Positions 3 through 6,286 of a DNA stretch of 64,000 bases are shown one piece after another. The first letter of the stretch is position 1; each line of letters opens with the position of its first letter. The DNA is from an uncultured Candidatus Binatia bacterium (GTDB lineage Bacteria > Desulfobacterota > Binatia > Bin18): positions 608,001 through 672,000 of the forward strand of contig OZ243961.1 in the NCBI GenBank assembly GCA_965214605.1, given 5' to 3'. Position numbers and translations under genes: made by a program. The notes beneath the pieces are model-generated. The model had not been told where the DNA came from. It saw only the letters and a list, made by a program, of their open reading frames with translations, and ran no database searches.

Positions 3-3000
3 GCGGCCACTCGAACCTACGACATCACCGAAGGGATTTTATGCGGGAGCTTAATCGGCTTGATATGCGCTGTGCATCTGTCCGGGTTTCGCCTATTTTC
101 CAAGAGCGGGGAGACACGCCAGTTCCGAAATCGAAGTCGATATCCCGAAGACGCATTCACCAAGGCGTTCCGCGCTCATACGGAAATCATAAACCCTGAC
201 ATTACGATTCAGTCAATTGAGGCTGTCTTCGCCGCACCTCCGCGAAAGAAAATAGCCTGGTCAGCGGACACCCTTGGGAAGCGGCTGTTTCAAACCTGGA
301 ACAATCGCTCCCCAAAAGACGCAGAGAGAGAGCACCCAGAATTTTTACTGGCCCAGGGAATCGCTTGCGAAGTCGCCAAACAGTTCTCCGGATGGAAGGA
401 ACTCGCCGACAATGTAAGCGGTGCACTGGCCTGCGCTGACAGATATCTGGCGACCCTGGGAGACTCCTTTCCAAAACTCAGTAACCTGCCACCCGGAACC
501 ACGATCAATCCAGACTCTTGTACGCTTGCCTACGATCCCGAATCGCCCTTCGTTGAGATGGTTGGTAACGAAGAAAACTGGCTCCATCAGGTAGTGGCGG
601 TTTGTGCTGGCAGGCTGAAACGAGACATGCCCGATCGTGACCTATCCTCGTCTGATTTTGCAAAGCGTCTGAACGACGCTGTTGTTACTAGTCAGCACAA
701 TGGACTGTCTTGGTTATTCGGCAACGGCCTACGCTACCTTCGGAAATCAAGCATTGAGCGGATTACCGAAAACCTTGATGTTCCACACGGGAAGCGCCAA
801 CGAGTTGAACAACTCAAAGCCTTTGCCGACGCGCTTCCTGACAATCCATTTTTCGACACCAATGGCTATGCCGAGTTTCGTACCTCCGTCGGTGGCAAGA
901 TCGCCTCATGGGTCTCGAACTACTGGAAGCGCATTTGCGAACTTGCGACGTTGCATTCTCAGCCGCCGGATATCGCTATTCCCGAAACGCTGCAAGATCC
1001 CGATAACGCCTTTCTGTTTTCTGGTCAGCACACCAACGCTGCCGGCCTCATAGACCTCTCTAATCGCATCCCTGAGCGGGTCAAAAAAGCCGGCAATGCG
1101 CTTGTTGTTCTGCGTGGAAGTTGTATTCCTGGACCGGAAGATATCGCCGTCGTTGAATCCGTTGCCGATGAGATGACCGAACTCACTGGGCAACTCTCCA
1201 TGCTCGACAACCGCATTCGGCAGGAAACCGAACGCGCCAAAGACGCCGAAAACGAAAAACGTGCCAAGGTCCTAGAATCCCTCAGGCCAAACATTCCCAA
1301 AGGTCTCAAGGATCTGCCCAAACTAAACAGCATATCAGGCGGCACCGTGGACGCTACCGGTGAGATCAAACGGCTGGAAGCCGACCTGAACTCCGTCATA
1401 CGAGCACGCCGTGAGCACTTCCGGCAACTCTCTGAATGGGCGGACAGTAACGCAGGCGGCCTTGATCCCCTGCCCATCCTTAAAGAACGCGAACAAGAGG
1501 CGCTTTCCGACCGAAACATGGACCTCGATTGTGCAGCTGAATACGCTATCCGGCGTCTGCTTGATCGCATCGGCGTCATGTCGCATCGACTGTCGCCAAG
1601 TGTAGCCGAGCAAATCCGGACCGCCATGACGCCGCTTTTTCGCAGGAAAAAAGAGGCAAACCGCTACTTCTACAATCGCAACGGCAGGATCTATCGGCAT
1701 CCCTTCAGCACCTCACGTCACCAGGCTTATGCCATAGACGTAGAGCGTGCCCACGCAACCGATTGGCTCTTGTGGTTGGAGGAGCGGACGACAGAAATCC
1801 GTAACGCTCTGCGCGCGGATCAGACACGCCTACGCGATCTTCTGTTGATGGAAGCTTTTGTCCTGACGACACGGCTCGGCGGTCTCTCTGATCGTGTACC
1901 GGGGGATCTGGCGAAACCGGAAAACGACTGTCTCAACATTCCTCCCCTGCTCAAAGCGCAGCTCGAGGCTAGGGAGGTTTCGCGCGATGTGGCCGTGCGC
2001 GCCTTCAATCTGTTCAATAGTGCTATCAATGGTCTGTCGTTTCGCGCCTTCCGTGATAGTTTCATTGTTCGCGTTAAGTTTCAGCGCCAAGATCGCGAAG
2101 AAGTATTTTATGTCCCGAAGGAACGCCCCTGGCAGGCACCAGCTGACTATGATTCAGCCAAGGGTGAGATATCTAAGGGCTTGAAGCTCTCCGCAGTCGT
2201 GCGTGACCAAACCGGGGCTGTTCTGCCGCGTGAGACAGCCAAGGGCTTGAGTAAGGCGAAGTTTCCCGAGCCGGGTACGCGTGCCCTGCTGCGTCAATCG
2301 CCTCATGACTGGTTCGTCGAACTCGATGTCCGCTCTACCCAGGCTTCGGAGTTGGCAGGGCTGCCCGTCAAGAAGAACAAAGACGGACTCAAGCGCTGGA
2401 AAGTCCTGAAAAAGCCGGCCTTTCGACTAGTCGGGCCGCCCTCGTTCAAGACGCAGCTCGACCGCGCTCTGACAAGCGGAGAGGTGAAGCTCGGCGACTA
2501 CACGCTCATCATTGACCAGCTCTTCAAACAGTCCTTGTACGTCGAAGGTGAGGAGATACACCTTTTGGCTGAACCGGTAAAGATTCGGGCAGAACTGGCG
2601 GTTCCAGTAATAGACAACCGGCCGTATCCCAAGTCTGAAACCGACTTGATATTTAACAAGATCGTTGCCATAGACCTTGGCGAGCGACGGGTCGGCTACG
2701 CGGTCTTCTCGCTCATAGACTTCGTGGAAAACGGTTGCCAAAATCCGATCAAGGTGGGGAGCGTCGCCATTCCCGCTTTCAGGAAACTGATGGCCGCGGT
2801 CCGCCGCCACCGCGGGTCGCGGCAGCCCAACCAGAAGGTCGACCAAACCTACTCGAGAGCGCTGATGCAGTTCCGAGAAAACGTGGTGGGAGACGTCTGC
2901 TCTCGCATTGAGACCTTGTGCGAATACTTCGGCGGATTTCCCGTACTCGAAAGTTCGGTGGGAAATTTCGAGACAGGGGGCCGCCAGCTGGAGATGATCT

Positions 3001-3650
3001 ATGGTTCAGTCCTGCGCCGCTACACTTTCTCCGAAGTGAAAGCCCATAAAGCCACCCGTAGCCATCATTGGTTCACAGCGGACACCTGGAAGCATCCCTA
3101 CGTCTACACCTACACCTACACCTGGAATAAGAGAGAAAAGCAATATTCCGGCCCATCCAAGCCGCTGAAGATATTCCCCGGCGTCACGATCAACCCGGCC
3201 GGCACCAGCCAGACTTGCCAGCATTGTAAGCGGAATGCCCTTCAGGCGCTGCGTAACATGACGGACAAGGTCGAAGTGGGAGAAGACGGCCGCGTAGTCC
3301 TCGGAAACGGGACGATACGGCTTCTCGAACGAGCCGATTATCTTCCTTCCGAACGAAGAAAATTTCGTCACAACAAAGCAAGGCCGCCGCTAAACGTGCC
3401 TGCCCAGAAAGGATCCCGGCTAAGCCGCGACATCACGCGTATCGCCAGACGAAACATGCGGCAACCCCCATCTTCCACAATGTCACCCGATACCACACAG
3501 TCTCGCTTCAAATGCGTGTACGTTGACTGCGGCTATGAGGGGCATGCCGACGAAAATGCCGCAATTAACATCGGCCGGCGTTTTTTGGAACGGATCGATA
3601 TGGAAACGTCGAGAGGGACGTGCCGGGACTTGACCGGGCAGCGAGAATGA
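3..3650 (+). CDS. cas12c: Type V-C CRISPR effector Cas12c (C2c3), 5' end outside the window
   Basis: Frame is open from position 3 (..TYDITEGILCGSLIGLICAVHLSGFRLF), so the true start is upstream. RuvC-I IVAIDLGE (D codon 2673), RuvC-II FPVLESS (E 2949), RuvC-III GHADENAAINIGRRF (D 3549); Zn-binding CQHC and CVYVDC. Blocks LSGFRLF, NGLSWLF, FRTSVGGKIASWVSNY, LPKLNSISGG, LLRQSPHDW, FRLVGPPSFK, RENVVGDVC and PLKIFPG match my recollection of Cas12c proteins. Adjacent solo cas1 and short-spacer array fit V-C. Confidence 0.93.
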   Translation, partial: AATRTYDITEGILCGSLIGLICAVHLSGFRLFSKSGETRQFRNRSRYPEDAFTKAFRAHTEIINPDITIQSIEAVFAAPPRKKIAWSADTLGKRLFQTWNNRSPKDAEREHPEFLLAQGIACEVAKQFSGWKELADNVSGALACADRYLATLGDSFPKLSNLPPGTTINPDSCTLAYDPESPFVEMVGNEENWLHQVVAVCAGRLKRDMPDRDLSSSDFAKRLNDAVVTSQHNGLSWLFGNGLRYLRKSSIERITENLDVPHGKRQRVEQLKAFADALPDNPFFDTNGYAEFRTSVGGKIASWVSNYWKRICELATLHSQPPDIAIPETLQDPDNAFLFSGQHTNAAGLIDLSNRIPERVKKAGNALVVLRGSCIPGPEDIAVVESVADEMTELTGQLSMLDNRIRQETERAKDAENEKRAKVLESLRPNIPKGLKDLPKLNSISGGTVDATGEIKRLEADLNSVIRARREHFRQLSEWADSNAGGLDPLPILKEREQEALSDRNMDLDCAAEYAIRRLLDRIGVMSHRLSPSVAEQIRTAMTPLFRRKKEANRYFYNRNGRIYRHPFSTSRHQAYAIDVERAHATDWLLWLEERTTEIRNALRADQTRLRDLLLMEAFVLTTRLGGLSDRVPGDLAKPENDCLNIPPLLKAQLEAREVSRDVAVRAFNLFNSAINGLSFRAFRDSFIVRVKFQRQDREEVFYVPKERPWQAPADYDSAKGEISKGLKLSAVVRDQTGAVLPRETAKGLSKAKFPEPGTRALLRQSPHDWFVELDVRSTQASELAGLPVKKNKDGLKRWKVLKKPAFRLVGPPSFKTQLDRALTSGEVKLGDYTLIIDQLFKQSLYVEGEEIHLLAEPVKIRAELAVPVIDNRPYPKSETDLIFNKIVAIDLGERRVGYAVFSLIDFVENGCQNPIKVGSVAIPAFRKLMAAVRRHRGSRQPNQKVDQTYSRALMQFRENVVGDVCSRIETLCEYFGGFPVLESSVGNFETGGRQLEMIYGSVLRRYTFSEVKAHKATRSHHWFTADTWKHPYVYTYTYTWNKREKQYSGPSKPLKIFPGVTINPAGTSQTCQHCKRNALQALRNMTDKVEVGEDGRVVLGNGTIRLLERADYLPSERRKFRHNKARPPLNVPAQKGSRLSRDITRIARRNMRQPPSSTMSPDTTQSRFKCVYVDCGYEGHADENAAINIGRRFLERIDMETSRGTCRDLTGQRE
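3105..3122 (+). repeat. In-frame hexamer tandem repeat (TACACC)x3 in cas12c, encoding YTYTYT
   Basis: Read directly: tacacc tacacc tacacc. Confidence 0.85.
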
Positions 3651-3753
3651 GCCACCATCGTTCCTATTCTCTTCCAGGCCCAAGGACTTATCATCCATAC
3701 CTCAACCTGGAAGACGTCCCCGCCTCCCCGGACGCCCTTCAAAGAGGGGAGGC
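3651..3753 (+). ncRNA. Candidate scoutRNA/tracrRNA for Cas12c
   Basis: Intergenic space between cas12c and cas1. Stem TCTTCCAGG (3670-3678)/CCTGGAAGA (3706-3714) encloses ACCTCAA (3699-3705), whose CCTC is complementary to the repeat 3' GAGG. Hairpin CGTCC/GGACG is followed by CCCTTCA (3735-3741), complementary to repeat TGAAGGG. Alternative stem GCCTCCCC/GGGGAGGC (3722-3753). Confidence 0.65.
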
Positions 3754-3757
3754 ATCA

Positions 3758-4813
3758 TCACCTTACCAGCTTTGAAGAGGAATGGGAGGTAAGGGGAATA
3801 TCGCCTGGCAGCCGATAGGAGACCTTTGGCGGACGCCCGCCTTTACGTTCACCCGCGGCGGGAACGATAAACCGGCGCATGTCGCCGGCCAGGTAAGCCC
3901 GCAGCGCCAACACGCTTCCATGCAACAGATTTTTACGGCGCACAAACTGGTGGGTAGCGGGAACGTAGACAACCTTCTCCATATCGTTCTTCAGCCCGGA
4001 CAAAGTGGCTTTGGTCAGCGAGTCAGAGGCATTGTCCGGGGGATGGGTCCGGCAGGCCCCGGCAACGGCCTCTTCAATCATGTACCGGGCTGGCTCCATG
4101 AGATCGTAGACAAGTCCCATGTAGTCGGTCCCTTCATGCAGGAATCCGTGACTGGGCGAAAGCCGGTGGATTAACAACCAGCGCAAGAGTACCCCAGACA
4201 GGAACATGGACCCTGCATCAAGGGCGGCTGGTAAAGGCCCCTCCCCTCTGCGAGTGATATCAGGGTATCCCATCCGAGTGAAATATCTCCGCCAATATCT
4301 GCGTGATTGCTCGGCTTCCCAGGCCCGTATCTGTCCAAGATTCCGTGTACGCGCCAGCCGTTTGTAGACAGCGCTTGGCATGGGCAGTGTGTTCTCTACC
4401 GCCCGAAAACGTTCACGTACTAGAGTCCGCGCAATATAGGCACGTTTAGATTTATTTGTCCGGGTAACGATCTGTCTGGTCAAAATATCGTCGGCATCGA
4501 CTCTGGGAGCTGGCAAGAAAATCGCTGGGCGGCTGATGTTGCGGCGGTGAACAAGGAGGGGCACTCGGCGAAAGGCAAGTTCGTCAATGAGAGCGACCGG
4601 AATCTGGCCAGTCGCGCCGTAGAACATGATGCAATCAAGCTGCGACAGCTCAGTATCGACCTCGCCTCCGTTATATGTGAACCGCCATAAGTTCTTTTTG
4701 AGCCTTGCTACCTGAGAGACGTATGGTAGCCACAAGGTCGTCTTGCTTCTCCGCTTGGTTGATTTCCATGTCCAAAGAGAATTTGGATGTTGAAATTGAT
4801 CAATTTTAACCAT
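3758..4813 (-). CDS. cas1: CRISPR-associated integrase Cas1, type V-C-like, stand-alone
   Basis: 351 aa with catalytic-type motifs WEAEQSRRYW, PSHGFLH and LVYDLMEP; lies between cas12c and the array; no cas2 or cas4 seen. Confidence 0.92.
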   Translation of the reverse strand: MVKIDQFQHPNSLWTWKSTKRRSKTTLWLPYVSQVARLKKNLWRFTYNGGEVDTELSQLDCIMFYGATGQIPVALIDELAFRRVPLLVHRRNISRPAIFLPAPRVDADDILTRQIVTRTNKSKRAYIARTLVRERFRAVENTLPMPSAVYKRLARTRNLGQIRAWEAEQSRRYWRRYFTRMGYPDITRRGEGPLPAALDAGSMFLSGVLLRWLLIHRLSPSHGFLHEGTDYMGLVYDLMEPARYMIEEAVAGACRTHPPDNASDSLTKATLSGLKNDMEKVVYVPATHQFVRRKNLLHGSVLALRAYLAGDMRRFIVPAAGERKGGRPPKVSYRLPGDIPLTSHSSSKLVR

Positions 4814-4873
4814 ATATGTCCTCAGTAAGAAAATCGAAAAATCATTGTAATATAAATATTTATCTGGTATACC
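4814..4873 (+). promoter_or_regulatory. AT-rich CRISPR leader / divergent cas1-array promoter region
   Basis: Strongly AT-rich against a GC-rich background; TTGTAA(4845)-N17-TATACC(4868); palindromes ATAAATATTTAT (4852-4863) and GGTATACC (4866-4873). Confidence 0.7.
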
Positions 4874-5539
4874 TCCAGTTCTGAAGGGGAATTAGAGGCC
4901 GAAAAATATGAGTTCTGAAGGGGAATTAGAGGGTGTGGAGCATGACGCAATCCAGTTCTGAAGGGGAATTAGAGGCTGAAATACGGGCGTTCCTCCAGTT
5001 CTGAAGGGGAATTAGAGGTTCTCAACAGCATGAGGAGTCCAGTTCTGAAGGGGAATTAGAGGTTCTCAACAGCATGAGGAGTCCAGTTCTGAAGGGGAAT
5101 TAGAGGTTCTCAACAGCATGAGGAGTCCAGTTCTGAAGGGGAATTAGAGGTTCTCAACAGCATGAGGAGTCCAGTTCTGAAGGGGAATTAGAGGTTCTCA
5201 ACAGCATGAGGAGTCCAGTTCTGAAGGGGAATTAGAGGTTCTCAACAGCATGAGGAGTCCAGTTCTGAAGGGGAATTAGAGGTTCTCAACAGCATGAGGA
5301 GTCCAGTTCTGAAGGGGAATTAGAGGTTCTCAACAGCATGAGGAGTCCAGTTCTGAAGGGGAATTAGAGGTTCTCAACAGCATGAGGAGTCCAGCAGGGG
5401 AATTAGAGGTTCTCAACAGCATGAGGAGTCCAGTTCTGAAGGGGAATTAGAGGCACGCGCATGACGCACCCCCCAGTTCTGAAGGGGAATTAGAGGATGG
5501 AAGGCTTCGGGCTGCCCAGTTCTGAAGGGGAATTAGAGG
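4874..5539 (+). CRISPR. CRISPR array: 16 repeats (consensus TCCAGTTCTGAAGGGGAATTAGAGG, 25 nt), 15 spacers (6 distinct), mostly 18-19 nt
   Basis: Repeats start at 4874, 4911 (5'-truncated), 4951, 4994, 5038, 5082, 5126, 5170, 5214, 5258, 5302, 5346, 5390 (20-nt variant), 5429, 5472 and 5515 (last two begin CCCAG). Spacers: CCGAAAAATATG; GTGTGGAGCATGACGCAA; CTGAAATACGGGCGTTCC; TTCTCAACAGCATGAGGAG x10; CACGCGCATGACGCACCC; ATGGAAGGCTTCGGGCTG. Orientation inferred from the leader and the 3' GAGG. Confidence 0.97.
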
Positions 5540-5560
5540 CAGGGAGGGAGGGCTGGAATC

Positions 5561-6286
5561 TCATCGCTGTCCAAGTCGAATCGCCTCGGCCAGGTCTACC
5601 GCGCCGGTGTAGAGGGCGCGGCCGATAATCAGGCCGTGTATACCGTCCGCTTTACATGGCCGCAGCCGCTCAATGTCTTCAAGACTGGCCACGCCACCAG
5701 AGGCAATAACAGGAATCTGAATTGCCCGAGCCAAGAGCCGGGTGGCTTCGATATTCACCCCTAGGGATGTACCGTCACGGATAATATCGGTGTAGACAAT
5801 CTCACCAACGCCCATATCTTGGCACTGTTCGGCAAGTTGCGTCGCCTCAAGCTCAGTCGCTTCAGTCCAGCCTTGGACAGCGACTTTCCCGTCCCGGGCA
5901 TCAATGCCAACCGTAATCCGGCCCAAAAAGCGTCTACATGCCTCAGCTACAATCTGAGGCTGCCGATAGGCTACTGTGCCCAGAATTGCACGCTGTACCC
6001 CGAGTGAGAACATCTGCTCAATCGCCGCTAGGCTGCGCAGTCCACCGCCGAGCTGAACCGGAATATGTAAGGATTGGCAGATTTTTTCTATAGCGTCAGT
6101 GTTCACGCCTGCGCCTGACATGGCGCCGTCAAGATCAACTAGGTGGAGCCGAGCGGCTCCGGCGTCTTGCCAGCGCTGTGCCACGGCGACCGGATCGTCG
6201 GAGTAGATGGTCGCCTGAGCCATATCACCTTGGTAGAGACGCACACACTGACCGGCCTTGAGGTCGATGGCGGGGATAATCTCCAT
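5561..6286 (-). CDS. hisA: ProFAR isomerase HisA
   Basis: MEIIPAIDLKAGQCVRLYQG, HLVDLDGA, VQLGGGLRS, IASGGV, IIGRALY; start at ATG 6286. Confidence 0.96.
   Translation of the reverse strand: MEIIPAIDLKAGQCVRLYQGDMAQATIYSDDPVAVAQRWQDAGAARLHLVDLDGAMSGAGVNTDAIEKICQSLHIPVQLGGGLRSLAAIEQMFSLGVQRAILGTVAYRQPQIVAEACRRFLGRITVGIDARDGKVAVQGWTEATELEATQLAEQCQDMGVGEIVYTDIIRDGTSLGVNIEATRLLARAIQIPVIASGGVASLEDIERLRPCKADGIHGLIIGRALYTGAVDLAEAIRLGQR

Follow-up and report, generated by a model that had tools for sequence, protein, structure and literature searches.

A predicted tracrRNA with three short anti-repeats directly downstream of cas12c in a type V-C CRISPR locus of an uncultured Binatia bacterium

The stretch of DNA analysed here, called the window in the following, comprises 64,000 nt of contig OZ243961.1 (positions 608,001-672,000; assembly GCA_965214605.1) from an uncultured Candidatus Binatia bacterium. 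Coordinates are window positions unless another locus is named. The window carries a CRISPR locus of type V-C, in which an element of about 95 nt (approximately 3664-3760, + strand) follows the effector gene cas12c. Judged from sequence comparisons, this element is very probably the gene of the trans-activating CRISPR RNA (tracrRNA) of the Cas12c system, also named short-complementarity untranslated RNA (scoutRNA). An initial annotation of this DNA had proposed the RNA component of the system at this place, and the proposal gains support from the identity of the effector as Cas12c, the order of elements in the scaffold, their conservation and their covariation with the repeat.

Architecture of the RNA element

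The CRISPR array (4874-5540, + strand; 16 repeats, one of them truncated, with a period of 43-44 nt) shares the strand of cas12c and the element. Its repeat is (T/C)CCAGTTCTGAAGGGGAATTAGAGG, 25 nt in length, and its spacers are 18-19 nt long. With this repeat sequence GAGG forms the 3' end (positions -4 to -1) and UGAAGGG occupies positions -17 to -11.

The element starts 16 nt 3' of the cas12c stop codon and on the cas12c strand, so oriented that its RNA is complementary to the array transcript. Its first part is AUUC (anti-repeat 1, AR1; 3666-3669), the complement of GAAU at repeat positions -10 to -7, and immediately 3' of it stem 1 is formed by UCUUCCAGG (3670-3678) and CCUGGAAGA (3706-3714), which pair over 9 bp. 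The 27-nt loop of stem 1 contains a small hairpin, stem 2 (GGA(CUUAUCA)UCC, 3684-3696), and AUCCAUACCUCAA, which includes CCUC (AR2; 3700-3703), the complement of GAGG at -4 to -1. Stem 3 (CGUCC/GGACG, 3715-3719/3730-3734; hairpin 3715-3734) abuts stem 1 and is itself abutted by CCCUUCA (AR3; 3735-3741), the complement of UGAAGGG at -17 to -11. A further helix, S2, is formed between GCCUCCCC in the loop of stem 3 (3722-3729) and GGGGAGGC (3746-3753), which is followed by AUCAUCA, a degenerate U-tract. All of these parts are on the + strand. Altogether, the element pairs with the repeat over 15 bp in three disjoint duplexes and leaves repeat positions -6 and -5 unpaired. The 9-bp stem with CCUC in its loop and the second hairpin followed by CCCUUCA had both been described in the initial annotation and were recovered at exactly these positions. 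The complementarity had been called bipartite there; both of its sites are real, and with AUUC at 3666-3669, which had been missed, it is tripartite.

The effector gene occupies positions 3-3650 (+ strand) with its 5' end outside the window, and in the genome the whole frame is open and free of stops (1072.6 bits in the genome-wide match). Its product reached 1037.5 bits against NCBIfam NF033950 (cut-off 250) and 1268 bits against the PADLOC Cas12c model. The only solved relatives among the PDB matches were Cas12c2 (7v93, E 1e-146) and Cas12c1 (7vyx, E 2.6e-119). Residues D891, E983 and D1183 and four Cys residues are invariant in a 25-sequence family alignment; by analogy with Cas12c2, whose RuvC residues are Asp928, Glu1014 and Asp1201 (PMC9522604, in the part of that paper available here), they are read as an intact RuvC site and a zinc cluster. 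On the strength of these sequence matches the effector is Cas12c.

The fold of the region was assessed with RNAfold. On the + strand, the interval 3651-3757 reached -32.9 kcal/mol (z = -2.75), a stability matched by none of 200 shuffled sequences, and its minimum-energy structure consisted of stem 1 (9 bp) and S2 (8 bp). On the minus strand z was -0.79 and 46 of 200 shuffles were as stable. Motif counts in the window, array included, were used as a second measure. CCCTTCA occurs 22 times, 15 times antisense to the array and seven times elsewhere, against 9.7 expected; taken singly, this 7-mer is at chance level and provides no evidence. The composite motif ATTC-N(25-40)-CCTC-N(25-40)-CCCTTCA has two matches, the element and the array's own antisense strand, with 0.01 expected.

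Two other candidates were considered for the same region and rejected. For an RNA on the minus strand, the z value was poor, the G-U pairs of stems 1 and 3 become C-A mismatches, and complementarity to the array transcript exists on the + strand only. Two small open reading frames on the minus strand (3483-3698 and 3533-3742) cross the end of cas12c, and the alignment of the region lacks conservation of the coding type.

Comparison with known guide RNAs

In Cas12c1, the tracrRNA has three separate anti-repeats and three stems and pairs with positions -18 to -11, -10 to -7 and -4 to -1 of the CRISPR RNA (crRNA), with -6 and -5 flipped out; its order is a 4-nt anti-repeat, the 5' strand of stem 1, stem 2, a second 4-nt anti-repeat, the 3' strand of stem 1, stem 3 and an 8-nt anti-repeat (PMC9723637). 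The same order of elements is found in Cas12c2 with registers -11 to -8, -4 to -1 and -18 to -12 (PMC9522604), and type V-C has been characterised by 'three 4-7 bp disjoint R/AR stems', i.e. repeat/anti-repeat stems (PMC11246509). These statements, and those below that cite the same three papers, refer to the portions of the papers that were available.

The order AR-stem 1-stem 2-AR-stem 1-stem 3-AR is common to the element and the Cas12c2 scaffold (cryo-EM, 7V93/7V94, Kurihara et al. 2022, PMC9522604); stems 1 and 3 are contiguous in both, as are stem 3 and the last anti-repeat. The anti-repeats of Cas12c2 have 4, 4 and 7 nt, and linkers flank its stem 2. PK2 and R:AR-3 of Cas12c2 correspond to CCUC and CCCUUCA of the element. 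The sizes are similar, with 71 nt in the Cas12c2 single-guide RNA (sgRNA) and 76 nt between 3666 and 3741 in the element. The first anti-repeat (PK1) differs by one position (-11 to -8 in Cas12c2, -10 to -7 here), and the element has two unpaired A's between CCUC and stem 1. The engineered sgRNA does not contain the native S2. With regard to Cas12c1 (crystal structure, 7VYX, Zhang et al. 2022, PMC9723637), duplex-1, -2 and -3 are equivalent to the pairings of AR3, AR1 and AR2. The registers agree closely (-18 to -11, -10 to -7 and -4 to -1 in Cas12c1; -17 to -11, -10 to -7 and -4 to -1 in the element) and -6 and -5 are unpaired in both, whereas the Cas12c1 tracrRNA is longer (92 nt) with stems 2 and 3 of 21 and 23 nt compared with about 13 and 20 nt. 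Stem 2 holds the same position in the element as in both solved RNAs. Thus, the three short anti-repeats of the element are disjoint and stand at published crRNA registers, the loop of stem 1 holds stem 2 together with the middle anti-repeat, and stem 3 separates stem 1 from the last anti-repeat. At the protein level the match to Cas12c2 (494 bits, E 1e-146, about 1200 residues) is stronger than that to Cas12c1 (403 bits) and places the effector in a different clade.

The scoutRNA concept concerns both Cas12c and Cas12d. The name was coined for a short non-coding RNA that is encoded beside the effector, docks to the repeat over 3-5 nt and is needed by Cas12c for pre-crRNA processing without RNase III (PMC9723637, PMC9522604). 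The 15 bp that the element forms in three duplexes fit the argument of Kurihara et al. (PMC9522604) for preferring the name tracrRNA. The tracrRNA of Cas9 is likewise encoded in trans; its anti-repeat allows the crRNA to mature, and the RNA belongs to the effector complex. In type II systems, however, repeat and anti-repeat form one long imperfect duplex that is cut by RNase III (PMC11246509), in contrast to the three disjoint 4-7-bp duplexes of the element, and unlike in Cas9 systems processing would here, by analogy with the characterised Cas12c enzymes, be carried out by the effector itself.

Conservation and covariation with the repeat

Cas12c above the cut-off was present in 6 of 55 genomes of the taxonomic family. 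To the five other family loci, 27 loci from a scan of one genome per species and 54 loci from a metagenome scan were added. Nine of the 27 were close relatives (Cas12c 62-74% identical), four of these nine repeating family loci; among the 54 metagenome loci one was 66% identical (L048), four were 44-45% identical and many were near 30%. Twelve distinct close loci resulted, namely the window, five of Binatia type, L048, L022, L026, L023, L024 and L028. The element was located 3' of the cas12c stop in all 12, and conservation sets in sharply at AUUC, the bases between the stop codon and AUUC being variable. Loci L021-L029 and L048 come from metagenome-assembled genomes labelled Candidatus Binatia, Nitrospirales, Alphaproteobacteria and Bryobacterales, and they share the same tracrRNA and near-identical repeats, which suggests that the whole locus moved horizontally between phyla.

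A covariance model (R1) with stems 1-3 was built from the 12 close loci and searched against 63 sources with 524,815 bases. The source genome gave a single match (122.7 bits, 3658-3768), and within the family the model matched once each, at 89.5-122.7 bits, in exactly those six genomes that have Cas12c above the cut-off; of the other 49, six gave hits of 22.4-25.5 bits, which were taken as noise, and 43 gave none. Outside the training set R1 found the element after the cas12c stop in L067/L068 (69 bits), L049/L050 (53.5 bits), L039 (23.9 bits) and L069 (21.8 bits), and upstream of the array and cas12c in L033 (46.9 bits, 1383-1496) and L034 (24.2 bits, 1354-1468). In the latter two loci Cas12c is 33% identical, and the upstream location means that the gene position is not fixed in the family. 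A further hit of 23.9 bits was antisense inside the array of L017 (6782-6926). Loci L049, L051, L034 and L033, which were checked as possible sources of the solved proteins, encode no more than distant relatives of the PDB Cas12c chains (427-556 bits).

Covariation inside the RNA was analysed in two alignments. In the MAFFT alignment of the 12 loci, 95.5% of 287 cells were paired, compared with 38-57% when the partners were slid against each other, and 6 of 25 pairs had changed on both sides, a number that none of 500 shuffles reached (mean 2.2). Stem 1 was paired in 100% of its cells and showed three compensatory pairs; stem 3 was paired in 98% and showed two. In the model-fitted alignment of 18 sequences, 98.7% of 300 cells were paired and 13 of 17 pairs had changed on both sides, with compensatory pairs at eight of nine positions of stem 1 and all five of stem 3. 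RNAalifold, applied to the 12 loci, independently predicted stem 3 and seven of the nine pairs of stem 1. The GGA/UCC pairs of stem 2 are invariant, and an insertion in L022 that extends the helix is the sole comparative support for this stem.

Next to the stems, the anti-repeats were compared with the cognate repeats in 11 of the close loci; L048 was left out, as its 3-kb flank contains no array. AR1 is fully complementary to its repeat in all 11, as AUUC/GAAU in nine loci and as ACUC/GAGU in two loci with Bryobacterales titles. AR2 is invariant as CCUC/GAGG in all 11, and the motif C(A/G)UACCUC around it recurs in distant loci. AR3 is complementary to the modal repeat over the full 7-mer in nine of the 11 loci, either as CCCUUCA/UGAAGGG or, in one Binatia genus, as CCCUACA/UGUAGGG. 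The exceptions are G018, where only two repeats are left, one degenerate and one matching, and L023, which pairs at 6 of 7 positions; L022 and L026 have a longer AR3 pairing of 10 bp. Matching changes were also seen in distant loci. L049 has ACUU against AAGU for AR1 and CCCUUCAA against UUGAAGGG for AR3; L034 has CAUC against GAUG (-11 to -8) and ACCACAA against UUGUGGU (-18 to -12); L033 has CAUU against GAUG, with one G-U pair, and CCCAUC against GAUGGG. As read from these sequences, AR1 and AR3 co-evolve with their cognate repeat and AR2 is invariant.

In three of the five related family genomes (G026, G018, G034) the cas12c matches are split over two or three frames, suggesting that the gene is a frameshifted pseudogene there. 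All three nevertheless have an intact tracrRNA element; arrays are kept in G026 and G034, and just two repeats in G018. The distant loci L036, L037 and L038 (27-28% identity), in which R1 had no match, carry a different RNA-like region in the first 130 nt or so after the cas12c stop, with a strong GC hairpin and a U-tract at its end; the region of L036 includes CUACACAAU, the complement of AUUGUGUAG in the repeat.

Ends of the predicted RNA

At the 5' end, a predicted -35 box TTGACC (3630-3635, + strand) is located inside the last cas12c codons and a predicted -10 box CACCAT (3653-3658, + strand) follows after 17 nt. All 12 close loci have TTGACC or TTGACA at this position, always with TTG as the Leu codon. 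The spacer, which includes the stop codon, measures 17 nt except in one locus, where it has 18 nt; the second base of the -10-like hexamer is A and its sixth base T throughout, and the hexamer ends 5-9 nt before AR1. The promoter scan called the site in L017 (9/12, expected 0.0) and L028 (10/12, expected 0.1); the case for a promoter combines these calls in relatives with our own scoring of the hexamers. If the RNA begins at A3666 or slightly before it, AR1 would be preceded by the same short 5' overhang that is found in the published scaffolds.

At the 3' end, S2 was followed by a direct helix search in each locus, which was used instead of the MAFFT alignments as these misplace the S2 strands in some rows; the S2 pairing of 86-88% in the 12-locus alignment is for this reason an understatement. 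All 16 loci examined in this way have S2 as a perfect Watson-Crick helix (6-8 bp), formed by strands of 10 different sequences and with at least two pair types at every helix position. When the 17 nt after AR3 were shuffled 2000 times, no more than 32 shuffles per locus reached the observed helix length in 15 loci; for G018 the number was 244. The 5' strand lies within the loop of stem 3 and the 3' strand 2-4 nt after AR3. Automatic parsing of 13 of the 16 loci gave a spacing of 1-2 nt between the 5' strand of stem 3 and S2, 0 nt between S2 and the 3' strand of stem 3, and 9-11 nt including AR3 before the 3' strand of S2; the exceptions are L025, which has an insertion, and L023 and L028, which were read by eye. 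In most relatives the tail after S2 is U-rich (AUUUUCA, AUUUUUA, UUUUCUUUU), and in the window no U-tract follows the helix on the minus strand. With a U-rich tail on the + strand only, S2 looks like a + strand terminator or 3' cap, and a terminator function for both convergent genes, which the initial annotation had considered possible, is not borne out.

A second strong hairpin, GCCUCCCCGG...CCGGGGAGGC with UUUUU, is present 3' of the element in G018 (L019 4215-4260, the same locus as L029), and in its loop CCCUACGA repeats part of anti-repeat 3.

Alternative explanations

Several points weigh against reading the element as a tracrRNA gene. Likeness to the Cas12c1 and Cas12c2 RNAs was judged on the published verbal description of their architecture rather than on RNA sequences. 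The Rfam scan of 3300-5700 at E values up to 10 yielded no match to a tracrRNA family, the hits being three sub-threshold chance matches (mir-2, a snoRNA and a lncRNA). RNAduplex gave -18.7 kcal/mol as the best pairing of element and repeat, and 9% of 500 shuffles were as good; its prediction of a duplex with long loops is not meaningful. The 18-sequence alignment was fitted to R1 and contains one dubious row, the array antisense of L017 (6782-6926), and since stem 2 and CCUC/GAGG never vary, neither contributes covariation evidence. The close loci are kin, so that each anti-repeat variant may go back to a single evolutionary event; CCCUACA is confined to one genus and ACUC to the two loci with Bryobacterales titles. 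Both ends of the RNA are predictions, and a look-up of public sequencing runs for this sequence listed four runs of DNA type, from one study, and none of RNA. The promoter and terminator scan of the window called nothing at the element; the -10 box of the window is weak (3/6), and the tail after S2 is a degenerate U-tract in the window.

The element might be just a shared 3' untranslated region or terminator of the convergent genes cas12c and cas1, with a coincidental complementarity to the repeat. Its position between these genes, the minimum-energy fold with a GC-rich 3' hairpin, the U-rich tail of the relatives and the chance-level count of CCCTTCA would all agree with this. A terminator, however, does not account for the single-stranded segments AUUC, UCCAUACCUC and CCCUUCA, which are invariant or covary, nor for the changes AUUC/ACUC/ACUU and CCCUUCA/CCCUACA, which track changes of a repeat more than 1 kb away. 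The order of elements is that of the solved Cas12c scaffolds, as far as the available parts of those papers describe it, the element stands upstream of array and cas12c rather than between convergent genes in L033 and L034, and the minus strand lacks a U-tract. We therefore regard a mere terminator as highly improbable. A genuine tracrRNA without a promoter of its own is a different matter: it could be cut from the 3' end of the cas12c mRNA, with TTGACC-17-CACCAT as a by-product of coding. The weak -10 box without a scan call in the window, the overlap of the -35 box with conserved Leu-Thr codons and the start of the element just 16 nt after the stop codon speak for such processing, but Leu is encoded by TTG in every one of the 12 loci although the genomes are GC-rich, the spacer is constant in 11 of them, the hexamer behind the stop codon keeps A2, T6 and its distance to AR1 in non-coding sequence, and the promoter calls in L017 and L028 exceed the expectation. 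Processing from the mRNA thus appears unlikely, and an own promoter is the reading that we follow below.

The relation between stem 3 and S2 allows two views as well. The initial annotation had described the S2 stem as mutually exclusive with the hairpin; the stem exists, and the exclusion holds for nested folding only, because the two helices have no nucleotide in common. For this reason they may coexist as an H-type pseudoknot rather than alternate. The spacing of their strands is that of a classical H-type pseudoknot. Alternatively, stem 3 and S2 never coexist and form a switch, in which the S2 terminator at first sequesters AR3 and is replaced by stem 3 upon binding of Cas12c and the repeat. 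Exclusiveness in nested folds, the presence of S2 instead of stem 3 in the minimum-energy fold of the free RNA (the window and 9 of 17 loci folded), and the function of the solved sgRNAs without the S2 3' strand (PMC9522604, PMC9723637; available portions) favour the switch. Against it stand the absence of any common nucleotide, the strand spacing conserved in 13 of 16 loci and the covariation of both helices. We give the switch somewhat less than an even chance. A conserved H-type pseudoknot at the 3' end of native Cas12c tracrRNAs, formed by the loop of stem 3 and the tail with CCCUUCA in the third loop, is put forward as a tentative and rather unlikely proposal. In both structural papers the sgRNA stops right behind AR3, so that S2 is not visible there (PMC9522604, PMC9723637; available portions). 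If the pseudoknot is real, S2 would act as a terminator and at the same time as a gate or presenter for the first repeat contact, opening on assembly with Cas12c, and adding or deleting it could alter guide loading or stability in Cas12c tools.

Predicted function and significance

With the element read as a tracrRNA gene, the following course of events is proposed. A sigma-70-like promoter of its own (TTGACC 3630-3635, CACCAT 3653-3658) would start the RNA at or just before A3666, and the RNA would end after the S2 helix (3722-3729/3746-3753), which would act as an intrinsic terminator or 3' cap. The three anti-repeats would then dock onto each repeat of the pre-crRNA, AUUC at -10 to -7, CCUC at -4 to -1 and CCCUUCA at -17 to -11. 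By analogy with the solved complexes, the three duplexes are expected to build a junction-shaped scaffold that is bound by Cas12c, and Cas12c would use its RuvC site to trim the pre-crRNA on the 3' side of the spacer (18-19 nt). The repeat start (G/T)CCAGU is conserved and not paired to the element; these first six bases of the downstream repeat may contribute to the trimming cut. The resulting dual RNA would be used by Cas12c to find DNA.

This class of RNA has been described before, as have its role and its pairing in three parts. Three observations may be new: a series of natural compensatory changes in two of the three duplexes, a conserved S2 helix that interlaces with stem 3, and a predicted promoter within the end of cas12c; none of these was found in the portions of the Cas12c literature covered, which did not include Yan 2019 and Harrington 2020. 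The prediction would supply the RNA component for an uncharacterised Cas12c clade (494 bits to Cas12c2 over about 1200 residues). Since docking sites, stems and registers are defined, a dual-RNA or single-guide design can be written for this enzyme. The compensatory series amounts to natural 'mutants' and lends evolutionary support to the pairing scheme of the Cas12c1 and Cas12c2 structures, and S2 together with the promoter in the 3' end of cas12c may be of interest for the engineering of Cas12c guides.

Neighbouring genes and the CRISPR array

The gene cas1 (4813-3758, minus strand; Pfam Cas_Cas1 E 7.9e-14, PADLOC Cas1 E 1.6e-23) is convergent with cas12c, and tandem stop codons occupy 3755-3760. 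Neither cas2 nor cas4 was identified near the locus, where two upstream open reading frames of more than 100 amino acids were not scanned against families. With a Cas12c that has the RuvC residues, Cas1 as the sole adaptation gene identified nearby and short repeats and spacers, the layout of the locus is typical of type V-C. Histidine-biosynthesis genes, recognised by Pfam, are located 3' of the array. An AT-rich leader (4814-4873, + strand) precedes the first repeat, and a comparable AT-rich stretch is found directly 5' of the first repeat in relatives.

The repeat is polymorphic (A/G) at -5, an unpaired position in the kink. In the leader-proximal unit (4874-4932) the first spacer has about 9-12 nt and the second repeat begins with ATGAG instead of TCCAG. 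Between 5019 and 5428 the spacer TTCTCAACAGCATGAGGAG occurs ten times in tandem, and there are just five other full-length spacers in the array. This spacer has no other match with up to two mismatches in the 4.37-Mb genome (99.99% complete), and its tenfold presence could be a real duplication of the unit or an effect of assembly. The repeat at 5390-5409 (TCCAGCAGGGGAATTAGAGG) lacks 5 nt and has no UGAAGGG for anti-repeat 3; the spacer TTCTCAACAGCATGAGGAG follows it again. Duplicated spacers were also seen in relatives, two spacers twice each in G036 (L017) and two twice each in G034 (L020), so that duplication of units seems to be common in such arrays with a 43-nt period. In the array of G036 (L017 6841-6897), the place of one 'spacer' is taken by the repeat in reverse complement (GTCCAATTCCCCTTCAGA...), which thus forms a near-perfect palindrome with the preceding repeat and also draws the 23.9-bit antisense hit of R1.

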